64,000 nucleotides of DNA from Bacillota bacterium (GTDB lineage: Bacteria > Bacillota_I > Bacilli_A > RF39 > UBA660), in assembly GCA_003524085.1 (NCBI GenBank), contig DOEC01000006.1:1146-65145 (forward strand), read 5' to 3'. The position numbers and the translations under genes are program-made. Shown piece by piece: positions 9,106 to 64,000 of this stretch (its first letter is position 1; the number at the start of each line of letters is the position of its first letter). The notes beneath the pieces are model-generated. The model saw only the letters and a list, made by a program, of their open reading frames with translations. It had not been told where the DNA came from and ran no database searches.

Positions 9106-9106
9106 G

Positions 9107-11852: not shown

Positions 11853-11864
11853 AAATTTTCCCTC

Positions 11865-12773
11865 CTAACTAATTTGCACAGTTTTGTTTATTTTAAATTC
11901 TACTATAGTTACTTGATTATCTTTTACATAATGTGCTTCAAACTTGTTTACTGATTTTGTTATAATTATTCCAATAGTATTATTTTGAGTTATATTTTTT
12001 AAGTGTTCGTCAATGTAGTTCATATACGTTTTTATTTGACCATAATCGCTTTTTCTATATTCTCTTGCTTTTATTTCAACTACACAATATCTACTGTCAA
12101 CTACATTATAAAATAGATAATCTATATAATTCTTTTTGTCTCCAATGTTAAGTTTATATTCCCTACCAATAAAAGCGTAGCCTCCACCAAGTTGATGCAT
12201 AAAATCTTCTATATTTTCAAAGATTATTTCTTGTAATATTTTTTCAGTATAAACTTTATAACTTTTATTAGATGTCAACACTATTGGACTTGGGACACTT
12301 TGAATTAAAGAAAGTTCTTCTTTATTTAAAAGACTTTCTTTTGTTCCATCTGAAAGTCTATCATACTCATCACTTCTTATTATTTCAGCTAATTTTCTAT
12401 AACTTAAATTATCTCTTATAGAAATATTAGTATAATAATTGATTTTATTGATATCTTTTAAAGGTAAAAGTAATCTTATGTGTTCCCAAGTCAATTGGTG
12501 CGGCAATGCCGCACCTTTTTCAAAAAGAACATAAAATTGACGCATTCTCTTTAAATTAGATACAGAATATCCACTTCCAAATTCCTTAGTTAAAATACTT
12601 GCATATTTTTTTACTATTCCTTCTCCATAGTGTTTACCTGCTTCTACTAGTTTCCTTCCTATATTATAATTCATTGTAAGTTTTACATTATTTATCTGAT
12701 AATTCTTAGCTGCTACTTTAGCATTTCCATTTATTATTTCAGTCTTTATATTACTTAAATATTCGTCTATCAT
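11865..12773 (-). CDS. DUF1016/YhcG-family PD-(D/E)XK nuclease-domain protein, array copy 2
   Basis: 302 aa paralog. A 12-nt gap with TAG-GAGGG stop/RBS overlap separates it from its neighbours. Confidence 0.8.
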   Translation of the reverse strand: MIDEYLSNIKTEIINGNAKVAAKNYQINNVKLTMNYNIGRKLVEAGKHYGEGIVKKYASILTKEFGSGYSVSNLKRMRQFYVLFEKGAALPHQLTWEHIRLLLPLKDINKINYYTNISIRDNLSYRKLAEIIRSDEYDRLSDGTKESLLNKEELSLIQSVPSPIVLTSNKSYKVYTEKILQEIIFENIEDFMHQLGGGYAFIGREYKLNIGDKKNYIDYLFYNVVDSRYCVVEIKAREYRKSDYGQIKTYMNYIDEHLKNITQNNTIGIIITKSVNKFEAHYVKDNQVTIVEFKINKTVQIS

Positions 12774-12785
12774 AAATTTTCCCTC

Positions 12786-13694
12786 CTAACTAATTTGCAC
12801 AGTTTTGTTTATTTTAAATCCTACTATAGTTACTTGATTATCTTTTACATAATGAGCTTCAAACTTATTTACTGATTTTGTTATAATTATTCCAATAGTA
12901 CTATTTTGAGTTATAGTTTTCAAGTGTTCGTCAATGTAGTTCATATACGTTTTTATTTGGCCATAATCGCTTTTCTTATACTCTCTTACTTTTATTTCAA
13001 CTACACAAAAACAGTTCATTTTGTAATTGTATAAAAGATAGTCTATATAATTCTTTTTATCTCCAATATTGAGTTTATATTCTCTACCAATAAAAGAGTA
13101 TTCTCCACCAAGTTGATGCATAAAATCTTCTATATTTTCAAATATTATTTCTTGTAATATCTTCTCATTATAAAATTCATAGCTTTTATTTGGTGTCAAT
13201 ACTATCGGACTGGGTATGCTTTGAATTATTGAAAGCTCTTCTTTGTTTAAAATACCCTCTTTCGTTTCAGTTGAAAGTCTGCCATACTCATTACTTCTTA
13301 TTCTTTCAGCCAATGCTCTTTTGCTTAAATTATCTCGTTTAGTAATACTAATATAATACTTGATTTCTTCTACATTTTTTAATGGTAAAAGTAATTTATA
13401 ATGAGACCAAGTCAAAAGTTGCCCCACTGGAGCAACTTTTTGACTTAAATCATAAAATTGCTTCATTCTTGTTAATTCTGTAAAAGTATATCCCTTACCA
13501 AATTCTACCGTTAATTCCTTTGCATATTTTTTTACTATTCCTTCTCCATAATGTTTACCAGCTTCTGCTAGTTCCTTACCAATATTATAGTTCATTGTAA
13601 GTTTTACATTGTTTATCTGATAATTTTTAGCTATTACTTTAGCATTACCATTTATTATTTCATTCTTTATATTTTCTAAATAATTGTCTATCAT
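12786..13694 (-). CDS. DUF1016/YhcG-family PD-(D/E)XK nuclease-domain protein, array copy 3 (first in the operon)
   Basis: 302 aa paralog. Same termini as the other copies, with divergent blocks at residues ~60-100 and around the nuclease core (IDYLLYNYKMNCFCVVEIK). Confidence 0.8.
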   Translation of the reverse strand: MIDNYLENIKNEIINGNAKVIAKNYQINNVKLTMNYNIGKELAEAGKHYGEGIVKKYAKELTVEFGKGYTFTELTRMKQFYDLSQKVAPVGQLLTWSHYKLLLPLKNVEEIKYYISITKRDNLSKRALAERIRSNEYGRLSTETKEGILNKEELSIIQSIPSPIVLTPNKSYEFYNEKILQEIIFENIEDFMHQLGGEYSFIGREYKLNIGDKKNYIDYLLYNYKMNCFCVVEIKVREYKKSDYGQIKTYMNYIDEHLKTITQNSTIGIIITKSVNKFEAHYVKDNQVTIVGFKINKTVQIS

Positions 13695-13925: not shown

Positions 13926-15368
13926 TTAAACAATTGAGAATAACATCAATACTAAAATGTTTACTATTGCAATTGTTATAACTACTTTTAATGCCCATTT
14001 GAACCAAGTTGAATAGTCTACTTTAGCAAGAGCAAGTCCTCCCATTATTGCTCCACAAGTTGGAGTTATTAAGTTTACTAATCCATTTGCACTTACAATA
14101 GTCATAGCCGCTACTTCAGTTGAATAACCTAAGCTTGCAGCAAGTGGTCCAGTTATTGGAGTTGAAAGTGTTGCAAGTCCACTACTTGATGGTACTAAGA
14201 ATGATAACACTATATGTAGTAAGTAGTTTAGTGGAACGAATACTAATTCTGGTAGTTTACTTAAATGTTCAGTTGCATTATAAATAATGTAATTGTCTAA
14301 GTAAGTTTGTTTCATTAATACAGAAGCTCCTCTTGCTACTGCTATTACTAAGATAACACCTATCATATCTTTTGTTCCATCAATAAATGTATCTACAAAC
14401 TCTTTTTCTTTGTAACCATTGATTAAAGATATTACTATACTCATTAAGAAGAACCAAAGTGCAGACTCGTAGAAGTACCAGTTACCTAAACTAGAGCCTG
14501 TAAGCCATCCAGTAAATCCATCAAAGAAAGTTATGTCAAATTCTCCCCATGGAATAAATCCTATAATCATTATTAAGAATGTTAAAGCAAAAACACATAA
14601 AGTTATTTTTTGTTTTGTAGTTAAAACTTCTTTTTGCTTTGATTTTTCCTCAAATTTACCAAATTCTTTTTCAGCTTCTTCTTGCTCTCTTAAAGAAAGT
14701 ATAGTTGAACCTTTATCTTTTTTAACTTTACTTGCATAAGCTAACACAAACAATGTTGATATTAGGTAAGCTAATAACCATAAGATTATGCCTATAAATA
14801 ATACAGTTCCTTGATTATATTCTACACCAGCTGCTCTTAAAGCAGATAATACAGCTCCTGTTGCAAATGGGTTAACTGTTGAACCAAGAACACCAGTACC
14901 AGCACCTAATAAAACTACTGCTGCACCTACAAGTGGGTCCATTCCTGCGGCAAACATCGTAGCTGCTAGAAGTACGTAGAAGCCAACTGTTTCTTCAAGC
15001 ATTCCATATGTTGTACCACAAATTGAGAAGATAAACATTAATATTGGTATTAACCATAATTCTTTACCTTTTAATTTTTGTACTAAAACTTTGATACCTG
15101 TTTCTAAAGCCTTAGTTTTGTCTATTATTTTAAGGAATCCTCCTAAAATAAGTACGAATATTGCAACATCTACAGCATTTTCAAATCCCAATATTGGTGC
15201 TAGTAAGATTTGGCTTAATTTAGCCCCTACTGTACCACTTCCATTTACTATTTCTTCACCAACGAATTTAGCATCTGGTAGTAAATGTGAAAGAATTCCA
15301 AGTACTACTATAACTATCATTATAATAGTATATGCTGATAACATGCTTCTATTCTTTTTCTTTGTCAT
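13926..15368 (-). CDS. YfcC/DcuC-type anaerobic carrier family membrane protein (putative arginine/ornithine exchanger of the ADI operon)
   Basis: 480 aa and polytopic. It is the last gene of the arcA-arcB-arcC operon, 1-nt gap after arcC. Confidence 0.65.
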   Translation of the reverse strand: MTKKKNRSMLSAYTIIMIVIVVLGILSHLLPDAKFVGEEIVNGSGTVGAKLSQILLAPILGFENAVDVAIFVLILGGFLKIIDKTKALETGIKVLVQKLKGKELWLIPILMFIFSICGTTYGMLEETVGFYVLLAATMFAAGMDPLVGAAVVLLGAGTGVLGSTVNPFATGAVLSALRAAGVEYNQGTVLFIGIILWLLAYLISTLFVLAYASKVKKDKGSTILSLREQEEAEKEFGKFEEKSKQKEVLTTKQKITLCVFALTFLIMIIGFIPWGEFDITFFDGFTGWLTGSSLGNWYFYESALWFFLMSIVISLINGYKEKEFVDTFIDGTKDMIGVILVIAVARGASVLMKQTYLDNYIIYNATEHLSKLPELVFVPLNYLLHIVLSFLVPSSSGLATLSTPITGPLAASLGYSTEVAAMTIVSANGLVNLITPTCGAIMGGLALAKVDYSTWFKWALKVVITIAIVNILVLMLFSIV

Positions 15369-15369
15369 A

Positions 15370-16305
15370 TTATTTTCCTCCTTTTATGACTGTACCATTT
15401 TTATATTCTAATGCGTCACTAGCGCATTCTAGCGATGTAATTATTGCAGTTTTATTTCTGTTTTCTACAAAATTTATACATGCTTCTATTTTAGGCAGCA
15501 TACTTCCAGGAGCAAACTGGTTATCACTTATATACTTTCTTGCTTCTTCTACTGTGATAGTATCTAACCCAGTCATATTTTCTTTATTGTAGTTTAAGTA
15601 TACTTTATCAACAGCAGTTAATATAAGTAACACATCAGCATCTACTTCTTTAGCAAGTAAACTAGCTGACTTATCTTTATCAATTACTGCATCTACTCCT
15701 TTTAGAAGATTATTTTCCATTATAACTGGAACTCCTCCACCTCCAGCACATATAACAATTACATCATCTTCAACAAGTTTTTTTATAACTTTGTCATTTA
15801 GTATTTTTTTAGGTATAGGAGATGGTACTACTCTTCTATATCCACGGCCTGCGTCTTCTTTAAAAATGTAACCTTTTTCACTTTCTATTACACTGGCTTC
15901 TTCTTTAGTGTAAAACATTCCAATAGGTTTAGTAGGATTTTTAAAACATCCATCATTTTTATCAACTAAGACCTCTGTTATTAAGGCTACTATAGATTTG
16001 TCAATGTCTCTTTTGTTTAGTTCATTCATTATTGACTGTTCTATATGGTAACCAATATAACCTTCACTCATACTACCACACTCTGCAAATGGCATTGATG
16101 GAGTAGCAGCACTTCCATTACTAGCATACTCCATTGCAAGAGAGATTTGCCCAACTTGCGGTCCATTTCCATGTGTAAGTATTACTTTGTTACCTTTTTC
16201 TATAAGGTCCACTATTACTTTAGAAACACCCTCTAGAATAGATAATTGTTCACTAGGAGTCTTCCCTAGAGCATTTCCTCCTAGAGCTATAACTATTTTA
16301 CTCAT
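15370..16305 (-). CDS. arcC: Carbamate kinase
   Basis: 311 aa. It has IVIALGGNAL, THGNGPQVG and ICAGGGGVPV motifs. Confidence 0.9.
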   Translation of the reverse strand: MSKIVIALGGNALGKTPSEQLSILEGVSKVIVDLIEKGNKVILTHGNGPQVGQISLAMEYASNGSAATPSMPFAECGSMSEGYIGYHIEQSIMNELNKRDIDKSIVALITEVLVDKNDGCFKNPTKPIGMFYTKEEASVIESEKGYIFKEDAGRGYRRVVPSPIPKKILNDKVIKKLVEDDVIVICAGGGGVPVIMENNLLKGVDAVIDKDKSASLLAKEVDADVLLILTAVDKVYLNYNKENMTGLDTITVEEARKYISDNQFAPGSMLPKIEACINFVENRNKTAIITSLECASDALEYKNGTVIKGGK

Positions 16306-17297
16306 TACTCTTCCCTCATTGTTAGATATATTACAGCTTTAATTGTATGTAATCTATTTTCAGCTTCATCAAATACTTTTGATTTTGGACTATTAAATAC
16401 TTCGTCAGTTACTTCCATTTCTTTTAGACCAAATTTTTCATATATCTCTTTTCCAATTGTTGTATTTAAATCATGAAATGATGGTAAGCAGTGTAAAAAT
16501 ATTGCGTTTTCGCTTGCATTTGACATAACACTCATGTTTACTTGATATGGACTAAGTAATTTAATACGACTAGCCCATACTTCATCTGCTTCTCCCATTG
16601 AAACCCATACGTCAGTATATATTACGTCAGCACTCTTAGTAGCAACATTTACGTCTTCTTCTAAAGTTATAGTACACCCATTAGTACTAGCAATTTCCTT
16701 ACAAGTATTAACTAACTCTTCTTGTGGCCATAATTCACGTGGAGCACATGCTACAAAGTTTATTCCCATTTTAGCACATACTACCATAAGTGAATTTGCA
16801 ACGTTGTTTCTAGCATCTCCCATAAATACTAACTTTAAGCCCTTTAAATATCCAAAGTTTTCTTCAATAGTCATAATATCTGCAAGCATTTGTGTTGGAT
16901 GAAATTCTGTTGTAAGTCCGTTCCATACAGGTACTCCAGCATTTTTGGCTAACTCTTCTACTATTGTTTGACTGTATCCACGATATTCTATTCCATCATA
17001 CATTCTACCTAATACTTTAGCAGTATCAGCAATACTTTCTTTTTTACCCATTTGACTAGCATTAGGATCTAAATACGTCACTCCCATACCAAGGTCAAGT
17101 GCAGCAACTTCAAAAGCACATCTTGTTCTAGTTGAAGTTTTTTCAAATAAAAGTACAATGTTTTTATTTGGTAAATATTTATGTTCAATATGTAATTTCT
17201 TTTTTTCTTTAAAATCTTTAGATATGTCTAGTAAAAACCTTATTTCTTCAGGTGTATAATCTAATAATTTTAAGAAATGTCTTCCTGTTAAATCCAT
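16305..17297 (-). CDS. arcB: Ornithine carbamoyltransferase (catabolic context)
   Basis: 330 aa. It has [17 protein letters not shown] and HCLPS motifs and lies between arcA and arcC. Confidence 0.9.
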
Positions 17298-18541
17298 TAT
17301 ATATCCTCCCTAACTAGTGGCATACTCATACATCTTGGGCCACCTCTTCCACGTGATAATTCAGCACTTGGCATTTCAAGAACTTTTATTCCGTGTTCTC
17401 TTAGTATATTGTTAGTCATGTTGTTTCTATCGTATACTACTACTACACCAGGCGCTATACAAAGAGTGTTTGTTCCGTCATTCCATTGTTCTCTTTCACT
17501 AGATATTTTTTCTCCTCCAGCACATGGAATAAGTGTAATTTTCTTTCCAAGATATTTTTCTAATATTTCTTCTAAACTACCTTCTACTTTTTTAACATTT
17601 AAGTCTTCAAATGTAGTTGGATCATCTCCTTCAGTAATTTCGTAAACTTCTAGAGTGTTCATTATTCCTGGATGGTATGTAAACTTATCATAATCTATTT
17701 GTGTAAATACAGTGTCTAAATGCATAAATGCACGACTTTCTGGTATTTTGAAAGATAGTACTGTTTCTACTTCACAAGTAGGTTCTTTAAATAAGTTTTT
17801 AGCAAGTTCATCAATTGCGGCAGGCTCTGTTCTTTGTGAGATACCTACAGCAATAACTTTATTACTTATGTTTAATACGTCTCCACCTTCAATGTGGTAA
17901 GGTAGGTTTCTACTATAGTACCTTTTTACTTTACCCTTGAAGTCAGGATGATACTTGAATATAAAGTCAGCATATATAGTTTCTCTATTTCTAGTAACTG
18001 AATACATTCTATTTAGTATTGCCCCGTTACCACAGCTTGCGAATGGGTCTCTTGTAAAGTAGAGGTTTGGTATTGGGTCAGCTAAGAAGTCACTCTCATC
18101 ACTTACAAAGTCAACTAAGCTTTTTTCTACTTCTCTTTTTCTTAATGGTATTTCTTCTATTTTTATACCACTCATTGTTTTTAATACTAATTCTTTTTTA
18201 TCAGTAAAGCTATGTAAGTAGTCATATACTAGAGTTCTATATTTAGGAGTAGTTATTCCAGCTTCATAGATAAATTCTTTTAGAAATTCGTCTAGTATTT
18301 CTTCACTAATACTTAATACTTCACTAACTAGGTCTTCTAGATATACTACTTCTATACCATTTTCTTTTAGAATTCTTGCGAATTCGTCGTGTTCAGCTTG
18401 CGCGACTGGTAAGAAAGGTATATCATCAAATAAAAGTCTTCCTAATGTATCTGGAGTTAGATTAAGCAGTTCATTTCCAGGTCTATGAAGAAGTACTTTC
18501 TTAAGTGGACCTATTTCACTTTTAACATTAATTCCTTGCAT
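17297..18541 (-). CDS. arcA: Arginine deiminase
   Basis: 414 aa. It has the [17 protein letters not shown] start, FTRD, HLDT and C-terminal [10 protein letters not shown] (catalytic Cys). Confidence 0.9.
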
Positions 18542-25469: not shown

Positions 25470-25997
25470 GAATTTTTTTGAAATTTGTTAGATGGTATTA
25501 TTATAGTACTAGGTACCATTTCTTTTGCTTGAGTTTCTGTTTTTTTCTTTTAATTTGATTTCTTGTTTTCAAAGATAATTTATCGTATTCATTAATTTTT
25601 ATTTTTTTCTCTAAGTGCACGCTCACTTAAATTACCTCGTTTAAGTTATATTAATGTAATACTTGATTTCTCCTAAGTTTTTTAAAGGTAAAAGTAATTT
25701 ATAATGTGACCAAGTCAATTGGTCATCCAATGGATGACCTTTTTCAATAAAATTATGGAATAATCTCATGTATTTAAGATTTGTAATCCCGTAATTTGTA
25801 CCAAATTCTTTTGTTAATTCTTTTGCATACTTTTTAACTATACCTTCGCCGTAGTGTTTACCAGCTTCTGCTAATTCCTTTCCAATATTATAATTCATTG
25901 TTAGTTTTACATTGTTTATCTGATAATTCTTAACTATTAATTTAGCATTACCATTTATTATTTCACTCCTTATATTCTCTAAATAATTTTCTTCCAT
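25470..25997 (-). pseudogene. Fourth DUF1016 paralog, truncated and disrupted (no nuclease domain)
   Basis: Track ORF 25641..25997 (MEENYLENIRSEIINGNAKL...YYINIT) stops at ~118 aa. Homology continues out of frame (KINEYDKLSLKTRNQI...VPSTIIIPSNKF) to ~25475 and ends at a hairpin, TTCCAACC-ACT-GGTTGGAA. Confidence 0.7.
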
Positions 25998-39310: not shown

Positions 39311-39387
39311 GGGGAATTAGCTCAGTTGGCTAGAGCACCTGCCTTGCACGCAGGGGGTCGCGGGTTCAAGTCCCACATTCTCCACCA
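39311..39387 (+). tRNA. tRNA-Ala (anticodon UGC)
   Basis: GGGGAATTAGCTCAGTTGG...CCTTGCACGCAGG...TTCAAGTCCCACATTCTCCACCA. The G3:U70 identity pair is present and CCA is encoded. Confidence 0.95.
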
Positions 39388-46130: not shown

Positions 46131-46207
46131 TGGTCGGGAAGACAGGATTTGAACCTGCAACCACTCGGTCCCAAACCGAGTGCTCTACCAAGTTGAGCCA
46201 CTTCCCG
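46131..46207 (-). tRNA. tRNA-Pro (UGG)
   Basis: The reverse complement gives CGGGAAGTGGCTCAACTTGG...CTCGGTTTGGGACCGAG...CCA. Confidence 0.95.
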
Positions 46208-46212
46208 ATAAA

Positions 46213-46289
46213 TGGCGTCCCCAAGAGGAGTCGAACCCCTAACCTTTTGATCCGTAGTCAAACGCTCTATCCAGTTGAGCTATGAGGAC
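46213..46289 (-). tRNA. tRNA-Arg (ACG)
   Basis: The anticodon loop on the minus strand is CTACGGA. Cloverleaf and CCA are present. Confidence 0.9.
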
Positions 46290-46332
46290 AGCCTGTCCAA
46301 AATATATATAAGCTCCGGCTGGCTTTTAAAAA

Positions 46333-46408
46333 TGGTGGCTTCAGTTGGAATCGAACCAACGACACCAAGATTTTCAGTCTTGTGCTCTGCCAACTGAGCT
46401 ATGAAGCC
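46333..46408 (-). tRNA. tRNA-Phe (GAA)
   Basis: GGCTTCATAGCTCAGTTGG...CAAGACTGAAAATCTTG...CCA. Confidence 0.95.
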
Positions 46409-46412
46409 ACAA

Positions 46413-46488
46413 TGGCGGTTCCGACGGGAATTGAACCCGCGATCCCTCGCGTGACAGGCGAGTGTGATAACCGCTACACCACGGAACC
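46413..46488 (-). tRNA. tRNA-Asp (GUC)
   Basis: GGTTCCGTGGTGTAGCGG...CTCGCCTGTCACGCGAG...CCA. Confidence 0.95.
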
Positions 46489-46495
46489 TTATTTT

Positions 46496-46572
<77 letters not shown>

Positions 46573-46590
46573 ATGTTAGTTTTTTAATTT

Positions 46591-46683
46591 TGGCGGAGGA
46601 AAAGGGATTTGAACCCCTGCGCCGCTTTCACGACCTCCTGGTTTTCAAGACCAGTCCCTTCAGCCAGACTTGGGTATTCCTCC
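46591..46683 (-). tRNA. tRNA-Ser (UGA), long variable arm
   Basis: GGAGGAATACCCAAGTCTGG...CTGGTCTTGAAAACCAG...CCA. 93 nt. Confidence 0.9.
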
Positions 46684-46690
46684 AACAAGA

Positions 46691-46779
46691 TGGTGCCTCG
46701 GGCCGGACTTGAACCGGCACGGTATTTAACTACCGAGGGATTTTAAGTCCCTTGCGTCTACCAATTTCGCCACCGAGGC
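46691..46779 (-). tRNA. tRNA-Leu (UAA), long variable arm
   Basis: GCCTCGGTGGCGAAATTGG...AGGGACTTAAAATCCCT...CCA. 89 nt. Confidence 0.9.
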
Positions 46780-46803
46780 GTGTCACAATTTTTTATTAAA
46801 AAA

Positions 46804-46879
46804 TGGTGACCCGCTGGAGATTCGAACTCCAGACCCCTTGATTAAAAGTCAAGTGCTCTACCGGCTGAGCTAGCGGGTC
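46804..46879 (-). tRNA. tRNA-Lys (UUU)
   Basis: GACCCGCTAGCTCAGCCGG...CTTGACTTTTAATCAAG...CCA. Confidence 0.95.
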
Positions 46880-46891
46880 AATATTATAAAT

Positions 46892-46967
46892 TGGTTGCCT
46901 CGGCGGGATTCGAACCAGCGAAATGCACGAGTCAAAGTCGTGTGCCTTACCACTTGGCTACGAGGCA
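46892..46967 (-). tRNA. tRNA-Gln (UUG)
   Basis: TGCCTCGTAGCCAAGTGG...CACGACTTTGACTCGTG...CCA. Confidence 0.9.
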
Positions 46968-46974
46968 ATCTAAG

Positions 46975-47058
46975 TGGTGGAGAGACATGGATTCGAACCA
47001 TGGAACCCGAAGGAACAGATTTACAGTCTGCCGCGTTTAGCCTCTTCGCTATCTCTCC
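46975..47058 (-). tRNA. tRNA-Tyr (GUA), long variable arm
   Basis: GGAGAGATAGCGAAGAGG...CAGACTGTAAATCTG...CCA. 84 nt. Confidence 0.9.
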
Positions 47059-47065
47059 AAAAAAA

Positions 47066-47141
<76 letters not shown>

Positions 47142-47147
47142 AAATTA

Positions 47148-47224
47148 TGGTGGGCGACGAGAGACTCGAACTCCCGACCTCCTGCTTGTAAGGCAGATGC
47201 TCTAACCAACTGAGCTAGTCGCCC
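47148..47224 (-). tRNA. tRNA-Val (UAC)
   Basis: GGGCGACTAGCTCAGTTGG...CTGCCTTACAAGCAG...CCA. It is the first gene of the array. Confidence 0.95.
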
Positions 47225-49997: not shown

Positions 49998-50726
49998 CTA
50001 ATTGCTACTAGTAATTGGACTAGTTACTGCATAAGACCCACCGTACACGTTTGGAATTTTACCCTGTATTATTTTTACCACTAACGGAATACTATTATTT
50101 ACTAATACGTCTTTTGAAATAAGTGGTAACATAAATCTCATATTTACTGTCACGTCAATGTAAACTTTTAGTAAAGAGTTGTTTATTCCATATGATGACA
50201 CTTCTGTTTTAATATTGCTTACTATACTACCTATTACTTTAGCTTTTAGTGGAACTTTTGGGCCAATATTTGAAAGTGTATAGTTTCCTGTAATATATCC
50301 CAATGGTATTTTGTATATTAAGTCCTCTGTTTCAATCTCGGTATCTTCAAGTTTATATCTTCCGTTTTCAAATGATTTTAAATCTTTGTATACTGCTTTA
50401 TTTAATTTCACTAGGCTTTTATTTATTTTAGCTGTGTTAAAGTCTACGCTTATTACTTCATCATTCTTATTTGTAAGTGTATTAAAAAAAGACATTGTTT
50501 CTTCTTCAGAAAATGAAATACTTTCTACAGCGTCACTTATTATTAATGAACTTATCTTTTTTACTTCGTTTTCGGCATACACTTCTAATGGTGGCACAAT
50601 TTTCGTATTTATGTATTTAAAGGTTAAACTGACTATTAGTAAAACTAGAAATGTCACAATTAAAATGGTATCTTTTTTTGTTAGTTTTATTAACAAATTT
50701 CGTTTTAATCTCATTTTCTTTTTCAT
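49998..50726 (-). CDS. yunB: Sporulation protein YunB
   Basis: 242 aa with an N-terminal TM. IPLGYITGNYTLSNIGPKVPLK, YGINNSLLKVYIDV and IPLVVKIIQGKIPNVYGG closely follow B. subtilis YunB. Confidence 0.85.
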   Translation of the reverse strand: MKKKMRLKRNLLIKLTKKDTILIVTFLVLLIVSLTFKYINTKIVPPLEVYAENEVKKISSLIISDAVESISFSEEETMSFFNTLTNKNDEVISVDFNTAKINKSLVKLNKAVYKDLKSFENGRYKLEDTEIETEDLIYKIPLGYITGNYTLSNIGPKVPLKAKVIGSIVSNIKTEVSSYGINNSLLKVYIDVTVNMRFMLPLISKDVLVNNSIPLVVKIIQGKIPNVYGGSYAVTSPITSSN

Positions 50727-56179: not shown

Positions 56180-57715
56180 TTATTCAAAATAATCAATATC
56201 TTCTAGAAAGTCGTCGTCAGTATTTTCTTCTTTGGTTTCTTGTTCTTCACTACTATTTACTTTTTTCTCAGTTGTATTTTCAATTTCTACAGGCTCTTCA
56301 CTAGATGTTTCTTGAGTCTCTACAGAACTACTTTCTTTAGTTTCTTCTTCGTCTTCATCATACATTGAAGTTTTAACTAATTCTTCTTTTATTTTAGGAG
56401 CTTTATTTGTTTGTGTGTCGTCTCCTCTAGACCAAATACTTTCTATTTCTTCTTTTATAACATCAACGTTAACATATAAGTATTGTTGTTCATTATATAA
56501 ACTATTTATTCTGTTAGTGTATTCAAGTTGTTTAATCTTGTCTTCAAATTTACTTAAAGTATCTACTCCATCATTTTGAATTCTATCGTTAAGTATCTCT
56601 AGACTTCTTTCTTCTTTAATTATTTCGTTATGTAAGTTATTGTAGTTTATATCCAAGTTTCTTAACTCTTCATTAAAGTTTTCTATATCTAGTTCATACT
56701 TATTTTCTAAGAATTTATCACTATTTATTTCGTCGTTTAATAAATTTATGATACTAGCATATTCGCTTTCTAAGTTGTTTAAATTTGACTCATTAAATAA
56801 TAATTCTTCAAGAGTTTTAAGCTTTTCTTCTTTTTTAAGTCTTTCAATTCTAGTACTAAGGAAAAGATTTTTTGACTCGTCAATAAGAGTATTTAACTCT
56901 TCTTTTCTTTTTTCTATTCCAGTAATAGTACTTTTAAATGTTTCAATTCTTTTGTTATGATATTTAGTTTTCTCAAATAAACTTTCTTTGATTTCGTCAC
57001 TTGAGTAATTATTTTTTTCTAAAACGTTAGTTATATCATTTTTCTTGTTGTTGTATAGATCAATTAATTCAAAGATATTGCTACCTTTTATTTCATCTAA
57101 AGTACGTTCGTAATTATTTTTAGCACGTTCTGTTAAAGTATCAAGTAAGTCTTTTACTTCCACTAAAGATCTATTGTTTTTAAAAGCACTAAGTAGTTCA
57201 GTTCCAATTAATATAGAATTCTTTTCTTTGTTATCAAGTGCTTCATTTACTAAAGATAATTCTCTTTCTAAAGTGTTAAGATAAACTTCATCCTTACTTT
57301 TGTCTGAATCATCAGTATAACTTAAATTATCAAGTTTGTAGTTTACTACTTCTATTAGTTCTTCAACACTATTAAGTTCTTTAGTAATAACTTCAATGTC
57401 GCCAGTAGTTTTTGCTTTAACTTTGCATTTTAAAGTTTTATCATTTAGCTTAAGTTCTAATTCACTCTTCTGATTTTTTAAATTGTTTAATGTTTCTGTT
57501 AAGTATTTTTTTTCTTCTTCGTCTTTAATCTTCTTATCTTTGTCAATATAGTCGTGAGTGTCTAGCTTACTTTTAATACTATCTATTTCTTCAGTTAAGT
57601 AGTTCTTTCTTGACTCTAGATAGTCAGTATCTTCTAGTACTCTTAAGTCAGTTATTTTGTAACCACTCTTTTTGACAAGTATACCAATTAAGTCTTCTAA
57701 TGCACGATAGTTCAT
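56180..57715 (-). CDS. Long coiled-coil protein with acidic tail (paralog B)
   Basis: 511 aa. N-terminus LEDLIGILVKKSGYKI, heptad-rich K/E/N body, a conserved YLYVNVDVIKEEIESIWS block, and a D/E/S-rich C-terminus ending DDFLEDIDYFE. Confidence 0.6.
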   Translation of the reverse strand: MNYRALEDLIGILVKKSGYKITDLRVLEDTDYLESRKNYLTEEIDSIKSKLDTHDYIDKDKKIKDEEEKKYLTETLNNLKNQKSELELKLNDKTLKCKVKAKTTGDIEVITKELNSVEELIEVVNYKLDNLSYTDDSDKSKDEVYLNTLERELSLVNEALDNKEKNSILIGTELLSAFKNNRSLVEVKDLLDTLTERAKNNYERTLDEIKGSNIFELIDLYNNKKNDITNVLEKNNYSSDEIKESLFEKTKYHNKRIETFKSTITGIEKRKEELNTLIDESKNLFLSTRIERLKKEEKLKTLEELLFNESNLNNLESEYASIINLLNDEINSDKFLENKYELDIENFNEELRNLDINYNNLHNEIIKEERSLEILNDRIQNDGVDTLSKFEDKIKQLEYTNRINSLYNEQQYLYVNVDVIKEEIESIWSRGDDTQTNKAPKIKEELVKTSMYDEDEEETKESSSVETQETSSEEPVEIENTTEKKVNSSEEQETKEENTDDDFLEDIDYFE

Positions 57716-57719
57716 ATTA

Positions 57720-59045
57720 TCACCAATCCAATTCTATTCTTTTATTTTTCTTTTCTTCTGCTTTTACTTCTTCTTTAATAACTTCTTTAGTTTCTTCTTT
57801 TACAGGTTTTTCTTCTAAAGCTAGTTCTTCTTTTCCTAAAATTTCTTCTAAACTTTTAACAGGTTCAGCTTTAATAACTTCTGGGACTATTTGTTTAGTC
57901 TCTTCTATTACTTCACTAGGTATTTCTTCTTCACTGCTAATAACTACTTCTTTATCAACATTTTTTTCTGTAAAAGTATCACTTTCTTTAAAATCATTGT
58001 TAACAACTTCTTGTTTATCCACATTTATTTTTGTGTTTGACCATTCTTTTATAAGTTCTTCTTTAACTTTACTAGCGTCAACATAGATTACATCTTTTTT
58101 ATTTTTTAAATAATCTATTTCAAGTCTAATCTTTTCTTTCTCATTGATGTCTATTATTCTTTCCGTCGTGTTAACGTAATTATCTTCTTTTAGTTTGTTA
58201 GATACATTATTCATTTTTGTAGTACATTTATCAAGCTCGTCTAGTAAAATTTCTTTTTTATTATTATTGTTAGTTCTGTTATTTCTAACATTTTCTAACA
58301 TCTTTTCTGCTTTTTCTAATGTATCTTTATTTCTTTCTTGTTTGCTTTCTAAATCATTTTTTGCATTTTCTAGTCTTTCGTATACTTCAAATGAGATGTC
58401 TGTATTTACTCCTTCATTAAGAACTCTGTCTATTCTTGTAAGGTCTTTATCTAACTTATCAATGTAATCTTTTATCTTATTAACAATGTTTACATCTTTT
58501 AACTCTACTTCTCTTAATTCGTCTAATTCCTTATTAACTGTTTTTAATTCAGCATTAAGTGAGTCTATTTTGTTGTCAAGATAAGCTTTGTATTTCTCGT
58601 CCATTTCTCTTTCTTCAGTATTCTTGTATTCGTAAGTATTAATTTTATCATTTAGTTCATTATACTTACTTTCAAGTTCATTAAGTCTTGTGTAAAGATT
58701 ACCAGCACTTAAGTTTTCTGTTCCTTTACTTGCAAGATTACCAAGAAGTTCTATTCTAGCTTTAACACTTGTATACTCTTTCCCTTCTTTATATGCATTA
58801 AGTAAGCTTTTACCAACTATTTCAGCGTTGTTTTCCCAATTTGCTTGTCTTAGTTTTAATGCATCTATTATTTTACTAAGAGTTTTTTGATTATTGCTAC
58901 CTTCTTTTTCACTTTGTAATTTCTTTATACTTTCTTTTGTCTTAGCAAGTTCTTCTTCACTATAGTTACTGTTAATGTCAAATCCAGCTTTCTTTACAAG
59001 TAAACTTACTAAACTTTTTATTGCTTCAAAATTATTGTTCATCAC
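57720..59045 (-). CDS. Long coiled-coil protein with acidic tail (paralog A)
   Basis: 441 aa. N-terminus IKSLVSLLVKKAGFDI, a conserved VIYVDASKVKEELIKEWS block, and an E/K/V-rich C-terminus. Confidence 0.6.
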   Translation of the reverse strand: MMNNNFEAIKSLVSLLVKKAGFDINSNYSEEELAKTKESIKKLQSEKEGSNNQKTLSKIIDALKLRQANWENNAEIVGKSLLNAYKEGKEYTSVKARIELLGNLASKGTENLSAGNLYTRLNELESKYNELNDKINTYEYKNTEEREMDEKYKAYLDNKIDSLNAELKTVNKELDELREVELKDVNIVNKIKDYIDKLDKDLTRIDRVLNEGVNTDISFEVYERLENAKNDLESKQERNKDTLEKAEKMLENVRNNRTNNNNKKEILLDELDKCTTKMNNVSNKLKEDNYVNTTERIIDINEKEKIRLEIDYLKNKKDVIYVDASKVKEELIKEWSNTKINVDKQEVVNNDFKESDTFTEKNVDKEVVISSEEEIPSEVIEETKQIVPEVIKAEPVKSLEEILGKEELALEEKPVKEETKEVIKEEVKAEEKKNKRIELDW

Positions 59046-59178
59046 TAACCACCTTATTTTCCTATTAATATGATATCATAATTATTTGTCAATTACAATT
59101 TTCATTTTTTAGACAATGAGTTTACAAAAAAAGCTAGACAAAGTGTCTAGTTAAAATGTCTTATTTTTGTAAATTATA

Positions 59179-60177
59179 CTATAATGTTTTCGTTTCATTA
59201 TTAAGTTCAGTTTTGTATGAAGTGATAGCTTCTTTTAAATCACTTTCTATTTTATATATTCCTAATGCTTTAGAAAAACTTTGTAAGTCAGTCCTGTAAG
59301 GTATGGAGAATGCTTGGTAAATGTTGTTTATATATGCTTTATCACTCTTTAATTTATCATACATATAATAACCATACACACATCCGAAAATATAATATAA
59401 ACTTCTTTGTGGGTGTAAGTCTTCTATTTCACTAGCAAAATAATCTTTTATTTTTGATAACTCTCTGTTATAGCTTTCTTCAGTCATTTTCCCGTATAGT
59501 TTTTTATAACTATCATACTCGAAGTCTCCAAAAGTAAAGTAAACATTAATGAATGCCATAATACGTATTAAATAACTTTTATTTAAAGTGTTCTTAAACC
59601 TTAGTTTTCTAACATACTTCATTTCTTCATTGTATCCCATACTGGATAACTCGTCTTCCATCAAGAATTCAGTAAATATTGCTAGGCTTTCACTCACCAT
59701 ATGGTCAGTTGTATTTTCAGGTATTCCAACAGTGTAATGAGCTAGTTCATGGGCAAATATTACTGCGTCAGTTATGTATCCTGAGTTTGGTATAGAGATA
59801 AATCTAAAATCGTCTTTTATTCCTGCACATCCAGCAACTATACCTTCATGTATACTTGGTAAATAGTCTTTATCATACTCATATTCTCTAAAATCAATTG
59901 TACCATCAGATAATATTTTATCAATTGTTTCATTACTTATTGGATAGTTATACTTTTTAAAAATTTTTTTAACTAAATCTATTTTTGTAAGTAAATCAAG
60001 TCTTTTATAATTTTCTAAGTCAACTTTGCTAAACTTTACATCAGCTAATTCTTCTTTTAGGTCTAAATATAATTCACTTATTTTAATAATTAAATTCAAG
60101 TTAGCTAATGTAATACCACTTAGTTTATTTTTAGATAAAAATTCATCTAACTTTATCTTTAATTCTTCGTTAGTCAT
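59179..60177 (-). CDS. Small HExxH (gluzincin/M3-like) metallopeptidase-like protein, paralog 2
   Basis: 332 aa. ITDAVIFAHELAHYTVGIPE...SESLAIFTEFLME. It overlaps the SPFH gene stop by 8 nt. Confidence 0.55.
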   Translation of the reverse strand: MTNEELKIKLDEFLSKNKLSGITLANLNLIIKISELYLDLKEELADVKFSKVDLENYKRLDLLTKIDLVKKIFKKYNYPISNETIDKILSDGTIDFREYEYDKDYLPSIHEGIVAGCAGIKDDFRFISIPNSGYITDAVIFAHELAHYTVGIPENTTDHMVSESLAIFTEFLMEDELSSMGYNEEMKYVRKLRFKNTLNKSYLIRIMAFINVYFTFGDFEYDSYKKLYGKMTEESYNRELSKIKDYFASEIEDLHPQRSLYYIFGCVYGYYMYDKLKSDKAYINNIYQAFSIPYRTDLQSFSKALGIYKIESDLKEAITSYKTELNNETKTL

Positions 60178-60922
60178 TCTTTTTAGTCAATCCTTCTATT
60201 GCTTTTAATACTTCAATAGGAAGTGCAAATATTACTGTGTTACTTTGATCACTACTTAAATCGTTTAGAGTTTCAAGAGTTCTTAAATGTAAAGCACCAG
60301 GCGCCATGCTTAAGTTTTCTGCTGCCTTTTTAAGGTTCTCACTTGCTTCTACTTCACCGTGGGCTTTTGTGATAACTGCTAGTTTTTCTCTTTCAGCTTC
60401 TGCAACACGAGCAATTACTCTTTTCATTTCTTCAGGTAAACTGATATCTTTTAATTCTACGTTTTCAACTTTTATTCCCCATGGGTCAGTTGCCTCGTCT
60501 ACTATTTTACATATTTCAGTACTTATTTTATCTCTTTCACTTAATAATTCGTCTAGGCTTACACTACCAACTGCATTTCTCATTGTTGTCTGCGCTAGTT
60601 GACTTACTGCATAATTAAAGTTTTCAACTGCAAGTATTGCTTTAGATGCATCAAATATCTTATAGTATAATACTGCATTAATTTTAATTGATACGTTATC
60701 TTTTGTAATTGCTTCTTGTTCTGGTACGTCCACTGCTTTTGTTCTTATGTCAACTTTTTTAAATGAGTCAATAACCGGTAAGATTAAATTCCAACCTGGG
60801 TTCATTATCTTTTTAAACTTACCAAATCTAAATTTTATTCCCCTTTCATATTCGTTAATTTGTCTTATAGAACTAAATATTACAATTAGTACTATAACTG
60901 CTACAGGTATTAACAATTCCAT
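60170..60922 (-). CDS. SPFH-domain (stomatin/slipin-like) membrane protein
   Basis: 250 aa with an N-terminal TM. INEYERGIKFRFGKF and the band-7 core. A coiled region is EAEREKLAVITKAHGEVEAS. Confidence 0.85.
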   Translation of the reverse strand: MELLIPVAVIVLIVIFSSIRQINEYERGIKFRFGKFKKIMNPGWNLILPVIDSFKKVDIRTKAVDVPEQEAITKDNVSIKINAVLYYKIFDASKAILAVENFNYAVSQLAQTTMRNAVGSVSLDELLSERDKISTEICKIVDEATDPWGIKVENVELKDISLPEEMKRVIARVAEAEREKLAVITKAHGEVEASENLKKAAENLSMAPGALHLRTLETLNDLSSDQSNTVIFALPIEVLKAIEGLTKKND

Positions 60923-60957
60923 ATTCTTCTCCTCCTTTATTTTAACGGTACTATTTT

Positions 60958-61959
60958 TTACCTTATTTTTTCATGTCTATTTAATTCATCTATTGTGTCA
61001 GCAACCTCTTTTTTTAAATCAAACAACGTTACTTCTATTGCTTTTAAAAACTCAATTAGATCGTATTCACTATACTTATAAGACTTTTTAATTACATTAA
61101 TATACGACTTATCACTTATAAATCTTTTTGCAATATTTCTACCTACTAGACATCCAATTAAGTATCTCATTTTAATTGTAATGTTAGTTCTTCTATCATA
61201 TGCATCTTCTGTTTCATTTTCTCTCTTTTCTAGAAAATACTTTACATCATTTATTATATAATCATATTCTTCAAAAGATAACCCAGGAAACAATCTAGAC
61301 ATTCTTTCTTTTGAAATATCTTTAAAAGCCATATATGTTTCTAAAACGTATAATGTGTTATAGATTTCTTTAGTGCAGCTATATGCATTAGCAACTCTTA
61401 TTTTTGTAAATAAACGTGTATCTTTTTGATAGCCCATTTTATCAAGATTTTCAAGCATTAAACTTTCTACAAAAATTGCATATATTTCTGACTTAAATGT
61501 GTCGTTATAAGATTCTGGACAACCATAAATGTAATGTGCTAGCTCATGTGAAAGCATTACTGCATCTGTAACTTTGCCATTGTTTGTTATAGTTACTTTG
61601 GGAGTTTCATTCCAAACCACACTAGTAGAACCAATAATTTTATCATAGTCACTTCTACTATTTGATGGGTCATTAAATACAATTACACCATTATTAATTA
61701 GCTTATCTATATCAATATTTTCAAGCTGCACACAATATTTAGAAAACAATTCTTTAGTTAACTTAATTGAACTACTAATATCCATGTCACTTATTTGTCT
61801 CATATTAATATCTTTATATTTAAAATCTATTAAATATGGTCCTAATTTAATATACTTTTTGGCTATTTGTATAAATGCGCCTAAATCATTTAATAATTCT
61901 TCGTCGTCTATTTTATCAACTAGTTCTTTTACTTTTTCTTTTAGCTCATCATCACTCAT
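60958..61959 (-). CDS. Small HExxH (gluzincin/M3-like) metallopeptidase-like protein, paralog 1
   Basis: 333 aa. VTDAVMLSHELAHYIYGCPE...SEIYAIFVESLML. It is collinear with 59179..60177. Confidence 0.55.
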   Translation of the reverse strand: MSDDELKEKVKELVDKIDDEELLNDLGAFIQIAKKYIKLGPYLIDFKYKDINMRQISDMDISSSIKLTKELFSKYCVQLENIDIDKLINNGVIVFNDPSNSRSDYDKIIGSTSVVWNETPKVTITNNGKVTDAVMLSHELAHYIYGCPESYNDTFKSEIYAIFVESLMLENLDKMGYQKDTRLFTKIRVANAYSCTKEIYNTLYVLETYMAFKDISKERMSRLFPGLSFEEYDYIINDVKYFLEKRENETEDAYDRRTNITIKMRYLIGCLVGRNIAKRFISDKSYINVIKKSYKYSEYDLIEFLKAIEVTLFDLKKEVADTIDELNRHEKIR

Positions 61960-61963
61960 TTAT

Positions 61964-63034
61964 TCACTCCCCTATTTCTTTATTTTTCTCTATATTAACA
62001 CTACTAATCTCGTCAAATCTTTTGCTTATTTTATCAGTAGTAATATGGATATCTCTAACATCTTTGTTAACTGTCTCCATGTGTTGACTAAGTTTATCCC
62101 ACCTTTCTTTATAACGCATAAATTCTTCTCCTAGTTTATTTAATTCAGTGTGAATAATACTTGTATATTTATCTCTTTCCATACCCATTAAAATTGCTTG
62201 AACAAGTGTAAGTAAACTCATTAATGTAGTAGGACTTGCAATATAAACGTGCCTTGAATAGGCGTAGTTGATAAGGTTTGGATGGTATGCATTTATTTCA
62301 GCAAATATAGCTTCAGCTGGTAAAAACATTATTGCTTCATCTGATGTTTCTCCACTTATTATGTACTTACTTCCAATTGCATCAATATGTTTTTTCACAT
62401 CACTTTCAAACATCTTTTCTCTTCTTATTCTTTCTTCATCTGTTATTCCTTTTTCTAGCATATATCTATAGTTCTCCAATGGAAACTTTGAGTCAATACA
62501 AATTCTACCTAATGGAGATGGTGCAAAAACTATCGCGTCAGCAATAACGCCCGTACTTAAAGAATATTGTAAACTATAAACTTTATCATTCTTATCTCCG
62601 AAAACACTAGATAATATTTGATGCAAATTAACTTCTCCAAAAATACCACGACTTTTCTTATCCGTTAACACTGACTGTAAACTCACTATATCATTAGATA
62701 GCCCATCTATTTTCTTTTGTGCCTCGTCTATTTTAGCAAGACGCTCTAAAACTGACGCAAAAGTCTTGTTAGTCTTTTCAAAATTCACATCAAGTCTTTC
62801 ATTAACTTTATCATTAATCATATTAAGTTTGTGCTCTATTCTATCATTTAGTTTATCAAAGTCACTAGTTAAATCTCTAGAAAAATTTAACTTAAAATCT
62901 CCAATTTCCCTTATAATATCTCCTTCTACCTTACTTAAAGAAATATCATTTTCCTTATTCTTTTTAATATTTAATAACACTATAATTAACAATATTACTA
63001 CTAATACAACTAAACCTAATATTACATACTCCAT
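61964..63034 (-). CDS. rmuC: DNA recombination protein RmuC
   Basis: Track ORF to 63049, with the start moved to MEYVILG after an AGGAG RBS. It has an N-terminal TM, a coiled coil, and the RmuC C-domain (RGIFGEVNL, VIADAIVF, CIDSKFPLENY, MFLPAEAIF). Confidence 0.85.
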   Translation of the reverse strand: MEYVILGLVVLVVILLIIVLLNIKKNKENDISLSKVEGDIIREIGDFKLNFSRDLTSDFDKLNDRIEHKLNMINDKVNERLDVNFEKTNKTFASVLERLAKIDEAQKKIDGLSNDIVSLQSVLTDKKSRGIFGEVNLHQILSSVFGDKNDKVYSLQYSLSTGVIADAIVFAPSPLGRICIDSKFPLENYRYMLEKGITDEERIRREKMFESDVKKHIDAIGSKYIISGETSDEAIMFLPAEAIFAEINAYHPNLINYAYSRHVYIASPTTLMSLLTLVQAILMGMERDKYTSIIHTELNKLGEEFMRYKERWDKLSQHMETVNKDVRDIHITTDKISKRFDEISSVNIEKNKEIGE

Positions 63035-63055
63035 ACTATCACTCCTCATAATTCA

Positions 63056-63084
63056 ATTTTAACATAAGCCAATTACATTGTCAA
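63056..63084 (-). promoter_or_regulatory. rmuC promoter
   Basis: On the minus strand: TTGACA (63079-63084), 17 nt, TAAAAT (63056-63061). Confidence 0.6.
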
Positions 63085-63155: not shown

Positions 63156-63188
63156 AAATATAAAACAGTAGAGTTTTAGTTCTACTGC
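63156..63188 (-). terminator. Rho-independent terminator downstream of the DGR template repeat
   Basis: On the minus strand: CAGTAGA, 8-nt loop, TCTACTG, then TTTTATATTT. Confidence 0.65.
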
Positions 63189-63413
63189 TTTATATTGGTA
63201 AATACCTAGATCCGTTATTTACTCTGTTTCGGGTTTCCTACTAAAGAGTAAGGACTGACATTTACTGTATTCAAGTTATTTCTAACTTAGGAAATAAACT
63301 TGTTTCTCTACATCTTAGTCTACTATAACATTTGTTATGACTTTTCTTTTAAATTTAAACTCATTAACGAAATAATTTTTACAATATATTTCAAGCTTAA
63401 CTCTAGAGAAGTT

Positions 63414-63531
63414 GGCGGGACGCACGGCGTTAGTGTTGTCCACGTTGTTGTTGTTCAAATTCGCATTGTCGGAATTCCAGTTCCACACGTTCGCGTTCCC
63501 ATTGTTCCAATTGTTAGGAGACAAGGACCAC
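63414..63531 (-). repeat. DGR-like template repeat (TR), adenine-rich
   Basis: 118 nt. The minus strand reads TGG TCC TTG TCT CCT AAC AAT TGG AAC AAT GGG AAC ... AAC GCC GTG CGT CCC GCC and aligns ungapped to 63831-63948. It lies in no long ORF, and the 72-aa N-rich track ORF here is spurious. Confidence 0.75.
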
Positions 63532-63740
63532 ACGAGTAAGGCAAGCTGAAGCCACGCGTACTTTATAGCTTATTCCTATATCAAAAGTGTTTTCACACTT
63601 GATACCAAAATTAAATTTTCACAACTGGCACTCACGCGCCAGAAAGTATTAGTCTTTCTAGCACAGGTTAGTCAGTATTCATTTTTTTGCTTACCACCAA
63701 CTTACGTCGGTGGAGCCGTCCGGATTACAAGAGTCTCAGT

Positions 63741-64000
63741 TTAGCATCCACTTGAAGTTTCCACTATTTCATATGGTGTCTCATATGTCCCATCTCCTGT
63801 ACTATATTTGATACAAGATTTGAGAGAAATGGCGGGACGCACGGCGCTTGCGGGGCGGACGCGGCGGTAGTCCAAGTACACATTGCCGGAAGCCCAGTAC
63901 CACACGTACGCGCTAGACCCATACCATTGAATAGGCGACAAGGACCACCAATATGTTGATACTTGAGAACCAGTACTATTACTAATAAACCATGCATATG
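63741..64000 (-). CDS. C-terminal part of a DGR target (variable) protein, open to the window edge
   Basis: The frame of track ORF 63741..63941 has no stop up to position 64000. It reads ...YAWFISNSTGSQVSTYWWSLSPIQWYGSSAYVWYWASGNVYLDYRRVRPASAVRPAISLKSCIKYSTGDGTYETPYEIVETSSGC*. Confidence 0.7.
   Translation of the reverse strand, partial: YAWFISNSTGSQVSTYWWSLSPIQWYGSSAYVWYWASGNVYLDYRRVRPASAVRPAISLKSCIKYSTGDGTYETPYEIVETSSGC
63831..63948 (-). repeat. DGR-like variable repeat (VR) at the 3' end of the target gene
   Basis: It has the same length as the TR. Most differences sit where the TR has A. The two repeats share the 3' GC-rich 16-mer CGCCGTGCGTCCCGCC (IMH-like). Confidence 0.75.

Follow-up and report, generated by a model that had tools for sequence, protein, structure and literature searches.

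We found that a stomatin-type SPFH gene of a Bacillota bacterium lies between two paralogous genes, here called HExxH_A and HExxH_B, whose ~330-aa products belong to a new peptidase family, a half-size M3B relative within the gluzincins; this family assignment is well supported and forms the solid part of our results. The genes are located in a stretch of 64,000 nucleotides of contig DOEC01000006.1 (assembly GCA_003524085.1), the whole of which is referred to as the window. The two proteins are best read as active, soluble zinc oligopeptidase-like enzymes, and we tentatively favour the view that they are peptidases co-transcribed with SPFH and rmuC, which would work at the stomatin assembly, probably as dimers.

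Upon examining the minus strand between 59179 and 63049, we observe four close-packed open reading frames, which in the order of transcription are rmuC (61964-63049), the first gene of the unit, encoding a membrane-anchored RmuC-family protein with an N-terminal hydrophobic segment (Pfam RmuC, 2.8e-56); the upstream paralogue HExxH_A (60958-61959, 333 aa); the SPFH (Band 7) gene (60170-60922, 250 aa; Band_7, 2.2e-42); and the downstream paralogue HExxH_B (59179-60177, 332 aa). In NCBI, HExxH_A (HBP12679.1), SPFH (HBP12678.1) and HExxH_B (HBP12677.1) are all entered as hypothetical proteins. The layout agrees with the original prediction, made from the letters of the window, of an SPFH gene between two ~330-aa HExxH paralogues, with all four reading frames where it had placed them, and the coordinates also confirm its 4-nt gap between the rmuC stop and the HExxH_A start and its 8-nt overlap between the SPFH stop and the HExxH_B start (ATGACTAA, 60170-60177). 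HExxH_A is preceded at 9 nt by a GGGGAG Shine-Dalgarno motif, the 35 nt that separate HExxH_A from SPFH contain a strong AAAGGAGGAG Shine-Dalgarno motif, and a GAAGG-type motif for HExxH_B lies inside the 3' end of SPFH. Furthermore, a promoter-like site 5' of rmuC (63056-63084, minus strand; TTGACA, 17-nt spacer, TAAAAT, with an extended TG) is the best sigma-70-type match of the region as a consensus match (11 of 12 positions), with a terminator-like hairpin (63157-63196) just upstream of it. At the other end, 29 nt past the HExxH_B stop, there is a terminator-like hairpin followed by a T-run (59134-59150, minus strand; CTAGACACTTTGTCTAG then CTTTTTTTGT), and a second promoter-like site, likewise a consensus match, stands between it and the next gene (59070-59098). 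Because the terminator-like hairpin is followed by a promoter-like site, the unit appears to be rmuC-A-SPFH-B, and a single four-gene unit fits all of these signals, from the promoter-like and terminator-like sites and the Shine-Dalgarno motifs to the 8-nt overlap and the 4-nt gap. Within the tentatively favoured reading, HExxH_B is translationally coupled to SPFH, as proposed from the 8-nt overlap.

The best PDB sequence matches of the SPFH protein are human stomatin (1e-58), Pyrococcus PH1511 (2e-56) and Escherichia coli QmcA (4e-40), as against only 1e-13 for HflK and HflC, and by this similarity the gene is of the stomatin type (SPFH1). It has the features of prokaryotic stomatins, namely a Band 7 domain, nearest similarity to stomatin and an N-terminal membrane segment. 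The single hydrophobic segment (residues 2-18) is followed by a Lys/Arg-rich stretch, which according to the positive-inside rule would place the body of the protein in the cytoplasm.

The HExxH family and its fold

HExxH_A and HExxH_B are 30% identical end to end (E=4e-41) and, judged by this alignment, are true paralogues. Both carry the HExxH motifs quoted in the original prediction; in HExxH_A, 61534-61548 encodes HELAH and 61486-61488 encodes E158, the candidate third zinc ligand. When 1.84 billion cluster representatives were searched exhaustively with a profile, only 134 clusters of the family were returned; their members are nearly all 310-360 aa long, with HExxH near residue 140 in every sequence covering the region. 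In an alignment of 101 full-length members, averaging ~20% identity to HExxH_B, the only invariant columns are H143, E144, H147 and E163 (HExxH_B numbering), a result obtained again with 96 sequences, and G92, G116 and D137 are nearly invariant; the family consensus is NNG..tD...LVHELSHYRNQP...LLTE.LA..EELIF.DYL...GY. The alignment and the predicted structure together give an HExxH motif with a Glu on the following helix as putative third zinc ligand, as in the gluzincins of clan MA(E).

No Pfam family matched HExxH_A, HExxH_B or the 101 homologues, the two window proteins giving only faint sub-threshold DUF6933 and Peptidase_M91 hits, and nothing significant was found for them in NCBIfam, PADLOC, PHROGs or PDB sequence searches with single- and two-sequence queries. 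Additionally, tblastn against phages and plasmids gave no match. Inside the species, a homologue search with HExxH_B recovered variants that are 98-100% identical. Relative to the two closest genomes (L001 and L002), the ratio of nonsynonymous to synonymous substitution rates (dN/dS, Nei-Gojobori) is 0.17-0.23 for HExxH_A, 0.20 for HExxH_B, 0.02-0.05 for rmuC and 0.06-0.08 for SPFH. The HExxH genes are under purifying selection, indicating that both are real genes, yet they are several-fold less constrained than rmuC and SPFH; values of ~0.2 also rule out gene-wide positive selection.

Next, we examined the predicted structure. The AlphaFold2 model of HExxH_B built from the 101-member alignment is of high confidence (pLDDT 92, pTM 0.91); a model from a two-sequence alignment (pLDDT 62) was discarded. 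The model has a small beta-sheet, then the HExxH helix (136-150) and then the helix bearing E163 (156-179), and these two modelled helices are in the canonical gluzincin arrangement. Foldseek placed Pz-peptidase A and PepF on top, the predicted model being similar in fold to solved M3B structures. The best PDB sequence match of the family profile is again PepF (2qr4), a weak one (E=0.068) whose alignment falls exactly on HExxH...E. It pairs profile positions 109-179 with PepF residues 341-414 (of 587) and leaves roughly the first 230 PepF residues without a counterpart in the HExxH family. The suggestion of a minimal M3-like catalytic core, raised in the original prediction together with a fold search, is borne out by the confident model, the Foldseek ranking and the 2qr4 match.

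Upon comparison with the M3B enzymes (oligoendopeptidase F and Pz-peptidase A; PDB 2h1j, 2qr4, 3ahm and 3ce2), we observe differences in length (565-600 aa vs ~330 aa here), in the spacing from the second His to the Glu, which is shorter here (16 residues in HExxH_B, 12-21 in the family), and in sequence, with an identity of ~10%. Pfam Peptidase_M3 and M3_N and NCBIfam pepF gave no match for HExxH_A and HExxH_B (E<=1) or for the 101 members (E<=0.01), and at 310-360 aa the family does not have the full two-domain, ~600-aa architecture that encloses the substrate channel of M3B. Since both the sequence models and the architecture set it apart, the family is not a member of M3B. The M32 carboxypeptidases (Taq and Pfu) and the M2 family (ACE and ACE2) match it less well than M3B, and are full-size, two-lobed enzymes of 500-600 aa or more. 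A viral fold library returned only a giant-virus peptidase (E=6e-3).

SPFH-HExxH linkage across related loci

Of 36 loci, 12 have an SPFH gene near an HExxH gene. They belong to two lineages that differ in their flanking genes, and in these linked loci the SPFH gene is always 5' of the HExxH gene and on the same strand. The first lineage, the window clade, consists of the window and seven other loci from genome and metagenome assemblies, and keeps the order rmuC-SPFH-HExxH-CC1-CC2, the last two being coiled-coil genes described below. The ATGACTAA overlap is identical in all eight of these loci, even with an HExxH gene that is only 29-36% identical. HExxH_A is confined to the window, L001 and L002; rmuC directly abuts SPFH in L003-L006, which have no copy A, and in L030 just 175 nt upstream of SPFH were recovered, holding a 3' fragment of rmuC. 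This distribution indicates that HExxH_A is a lineage-specific addition and that SPFH with the downstream copy is the older core. The neighbourhood survey proposed with the original prediction therefore gives a divided answer, with the HExxH-SPFH-HExxH triad present only where copy A is, in three loci, and SPFH adjacency in the 12 noted above.

Upon closer examination of the window clade, the slot after SPFH is filled by three deeply diverged paralogue types, which are 25-37% identical to one another, where the SPFH genes are 93-95% identical (genes compared: L006, 5001-6035; L030, 915-1931; window, 59179-60177). Relative to the window, L006 is 90% identical in RmuC, 95% in SPFH and 79% in CC1, and only 29% in the HExxH protein (to HExxH_B); the values for SPFH, CC1 and HExxH are 93%, 73% and 36% in L030, and 92%, 55% and 56% in L003. 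This pattern points to paralogue replacement or differential loss, not to clock-like divergence. In a neighbour-joining tree, HExxH_A groups with the L030 type and HExxH_B with the L003 type, the L006 type lies outside these, and all five form one clade.

The second lineage with SPFH (L011, L032, L033 and L034) differs from the window clade in its genomic setting, with ffh, spoVS, a methyltransferase and a transmembrane protein upstream, sufBD and ssb downstream, and no rmuC. Its SPFH sequences are 76-81% identical to that of the window, compared with 91-98% across the window clade. In L032, L033 and L034 the SPFH gene is followed directly by two tandem HExxH paralogues, which in L032 and L033 are 29% identical to each other with HExxH kept in both, and which in L034 are both matched by the family profile. 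In L011 a HAD-like gene stands between SPFH and the only HExxH gene. This conserved HAD-like gene of 160 aa, with a FIDLDGV motif and weak NT5C/HAD_2 matches, is directly upstream of the HExxH gene in two second-lineage loci, L011 (4488-4970) and L012 (1598-2080). Overall, the linkage is conserved and orientation-specific, has survived rearrangement of both flanks, and is confined to two lineages, probably of related organisms, and not family-wide. The alternative SPFH-protease module envisaged in the original prediction is upheld as a gene linkage conserved in these two lineages, and does not hold across the family.

Divergent pairs of copies at a single locus evolved on at least three occasions, as A and B in the window clade, as the P0204 and P0138 types in the second lineage, and as the halves of four ~700-aa fusion proteins. 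These tandem fusions of two family domains (P0132, L009 595-2622; P0160, L035 4001-6064; P0137; P0249) have N-halves and C-halves that each form a separate group, with HExxH in both halves, the second as HE(I/F/A)(K/R)H; the genes of P0132 and P0160 are not beside SPFH. The repeated keeping of two diverged copies, once fused, suggests a dimeric working unit that would readily turn into a heterodimer.

Regarding NfeD, the usual operon partner of stomatins, we found no Pfam NfeD match in any flanking gene of the window, nor in the Pfam-annotated neighbours in L006, L011, L030 and L032-L034, so that neither the window nor the annotated related loci have an adjacent nfeD and the partnerless state claimed in the original prediction stands for these neighbourhoods. 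No small NfeD-like reading frame (~3 transmembrane segments and a soluble domain) was evident in the 64-kb window upon inspection of open reading frames and transmembrane segments, which did not include a search with an NfeD hidden Markov model. Two candidates for a cryptic NfeD were rejected, the HAD-like gene of L011 and L012 on account of its FIDLDG motif and weak NT5C/HAD matches, and a divergent upstream gene of the second lineage (175-184 aa), which is all transmembrane without a soluble domain. Of 353 SPFH1 genes, 229 are in an operon with NfeD, and 50 genomes have SPFH1 with no identifiable NfeD1 (Hinderhofer et al. 2009, PMC2636767). With about a third of prokaryotic stomatin genes lacking NfeD, the NfeD-less state is a common minority condition and is unremarkable in itself.

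Surrounding features of the window

CC1 (57720-59045, 441 aa) and CC2 (56180-57715, 511 aa), both on the minus strand, encode coiled-coil proteins with an acidic tail and no family match, whose only shared sequence is an N-terminal motif of 20 aa, ..L..LVKK(A/S)G(F/Y). Both evolve fast (53-96% identity) and keep their synteny with the SPFH cluster across the window clade. Both were rejected as parts of the rmuC-A-SPFH-B unit, given the terminator-like and promoter-like signals between HExxH_B and CC1 and their absence from the second lineage, and they are probably a separate transcription unit. At the other end of the unit, just 7 nt separate the end of the -10 element of the rmuC promoter-like site from the first ATG in the reading frame (63049; region 63034-63084). 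With the -10 so near, translation may truly start at a Met six codons further on, or the mRNA may have almost no leader. The rmuC of more distant relatives aligns only from residue 28-31 on.

Upstream of rmuC there is a pair of repeats resembling a diversity-generating retroelement (63414-63538 and 63831-63955, minus strand), which explains the 44% GC of this end of the window. The 'template' copy is rich in adenine and in Asn codons (...WSLSPNNWNNGNANVWNWNSDNANLNNNN...), the 'variable' copy (...WWSLSPIQWYGSSAYVWYWASGNVYLDY...) lies inside an open reading frame that runs off the window, and both have the same GCCGTGCGTCCCGCC at the end. In total, 23 of the 42 mismatches are at template adenines, rising to ~74% in the 3' 80 nt. 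No reverse transcriptase was found between the pair and rmuC, and no large reading frame of the window looked like one, although not all were scanned with Pfam; such a gene may lie beyond 64000. A template-like copy is also present upstream of rmuC in L001.

Elsewhere in the window, three tandem, near-identical genes of 302 aa encode YhcG/DUF1016 PDDEXK nucleases (10944-13694, minus strand), and 12 kb from these lies part of a fourth copy (118 aa; 25641-25997, minus strand). A putative arginine deiminase pathway cluster (13926-18541, minus strand) contains an arginine deiminase and a DcuC-type carrier identified by Pfam, and between them two genes that are ornithine carbamoyltransferase-like and carbamate kinase-like by position and N-terminal sequence only. 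Twelve tRNA genes are located within 1.1 kb (46134-47224, minus strand), with one isolated tRNA at 39311-39384. The sporulation genes spoIIGA, with an adjacent sigma factor, and yunB (8419-9895; 49998-50726) occur in this AT-rich (~27% GC) gut metagenome-assembled genome, labelled Bacilli, Tenericutes or Firmicutes, so that the organism may be a spore-former.

Models for the SPFH-peptidase pair

SPFH scaffolds are increasingly viewed as cages that confine proteases, as in HflK/C-FtsH, prohibitin-m-AAA and stomatin-STOPP. The genomic linkage hints at a physical or functional coupling between SPFH and the peptidases, and such a partnership is a reasonable hypothesis. HExxH_A and HExxH_B would be soluble cytoplasmic zinc metallopeptidases of ~330 aa from an uncurated family, keeping the M3B catalytic lobe and most of the helical body but lacking about 230 residues at the N-terminus. 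With its N-terminal transmembrane segment as anchor and its body in the cytoplasm, the SPFH protein would assemble into the usual stomatin ring or cage, and the peptidase, made in step with it, would act at or on this assembly, either by trimming peptides or unfolded segments there or by processing the SPFH tail. The working enzyme would probably be dimeric, made of identical subunits at single-gene loci and of A paired with B at the window locus. A more elaborate form of this mechanism, which we consider unlikely, is that the half-size gluzincins pair up, as A-B dimers here and as homodimers or fused pseudo-dimers at other loci, rebuild a two-lobed peptidase chamber and dock on the cytoplasmic face of the stomatin cage in place of NfeD/STOPP, as an ATP-independent peptide-clearing or stomatin-processing module confined to an uncultured gut Bacillota group.

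Among known systems, the locus resembles PH1511-PH1510 and QmcA-YbbJ in that one operon contains a stomatin-type SPFH1 gene and a partner gene; the partner in the archaeal pair, PH1511-PH1510, is a protease acting on the stomatin. In contrast to stomatin-STOPP/NfeD, the partner here is a soluble zinc gluzincin, neither an OB-fold membrane NfeD nor a ClpP-type serine protease, and it lies downstream of SPFH, unlike the nfeD-first order that is reportedly usual. Conceptual models for a protease at work within or at an SPFH cage are HflK/C-FtsH, prohibitin-m-AAA and SLP2-YME1L, which likewise bring together an SPFH scaffold and a zinc metalloprotease of the HExxH type. However, FtsH, an AAA+ protease of family M41, is anchored in the membrane and is not encoded beside hflKC, whereas the protease here would be ATP-independent, soluble, M3B-like and operon-coupled, next to an SPFH protein of stomatin type that is only distantly similar to HflK (1e-13). 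In the literature searched we found no prior pairing of SPFH with a gluzincin other than FtsH, nor any truncated M3B enzyme. Pairings of an SPFH scaffold and a protease are known in principle, and a half-size M3B-like gluzincin coupled to a stomatin is undescribed in that literature.

Several observations weigh against a partnership at the stomatin assembly. In 24 of the 36 loci there is no SPFH gene within 4-5 kb and the neighbours are heterogeneous and unrelated, among them SpoU/ZnuA, amidase, pyrG, rplS/lepB and VanY; these include the SpoU-HExxH-ZnuA clade, nearest to the window clade in the neighbour-joining tree, both sampled fusion proteins, and all 17 metagenome loci, which were found with a 9-sequence sub-alignment. 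The SPFH genes of the two linked lineages are closely related (76-81%), so the linkage may be a single inherited, ancestral adjacency that would explain both. Additionally, evolutionary rates are discordant in the window clade, where SPFH is 91-98% conserved and the coupled HExxH protein 29-90% identical and replaced by deep paralogue types between close genomes, which is unlike what is usual for a tightly co-evolving complex. Finally, L011 has the HAD-like gene interposed between SPFH and HExxH, and the HAD-HExxH pair of L012 is not directly preceded by SPFH, in a contig that ends ~1.6 kb upstream of the HAD-like gene. All of these fit the main alternative, in which the HExxH proteins would be stand-alone oligopeptidases of the cytosol with no functional tie to SPFH, a compact counterpart in function to PepF in Bacillota with small AT-rich genomes, the SPFH adjacency being an accident of inherited gene order in one group of related organisms and the overlap a product of genome compaction. 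We regard this alternative as somewhat doubtful, though a serious contender. Against it, the pair stayed together when both flanks changed completely between the two lineages, order and orientation are the same in both, and three deep paralogue types came to fill the downstream slot in turn with no loss of the overlap.

A very improbable alternative is that rmuC-SPFH-HExxH forms a conflict or defence module, in which a membrane nuclease-like RmuC would work with a scaffold and with rapidly diversifying proteases, the latter sensing or cleaving targets of the invader or the host. RmuC does match the PADLOC model of reverse transcriptase-associated RmuC (8.6e-13), the repeat pair resembling a diversity-generating retroelement is just upstream, and the HExxH slot combines paralogue-type replacement between close genomes with relaxed constraint, as in arms-race loci. 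Against this, PADLOC and PHROGs gave no matches for SPFH or the HExxH proteins; homologues in phages or plasmids were not found; the locus belongs to a conserved core that is syntenic with bacA and DUF3603; HExxH_B is conserved at 98-100% within the species; dN/dS of ~0.2 indicates purifying, not diversifying, selection; and the second SPFH-HExxH lineage is without rmuC. That the HExxH proteins are ImmA/IrrE (M78)-type regulatory domains or catalytically dead pseudo-peptidases is hardly credible, despite a local motif, HEL(A/S)H...E..A..F, resembling the M78 signature and the faintness of the sub-threshold Pfam hits, the M78 reading being rejected on fold, with no Pfam match to M78, IrrE-like structures found only at E>0.3 in the viral library, and no helix-turn-helix neighbour.

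The partnership at the stomatin assembly would make this locus a concrete, testable partner candidate for the NfeD-less third of bacterial stomatins. Being small and soluble, the HExxH proteins should lend themselves readily to expression, to assays of zinc and activity, to pull-downs and to complex prediction. As a minimal version of the M3/M32/M2 fold, the family could show which parts of the fold catalysis needs, and whether two half-size subunits can build channel-forming peptidases. Overall, these findings bring to light a compact soluble zinc peptidase family that has no entry in curated databases and is coupled to a highly conserved stomatin, in a pairing kept through genomic rearrangement.

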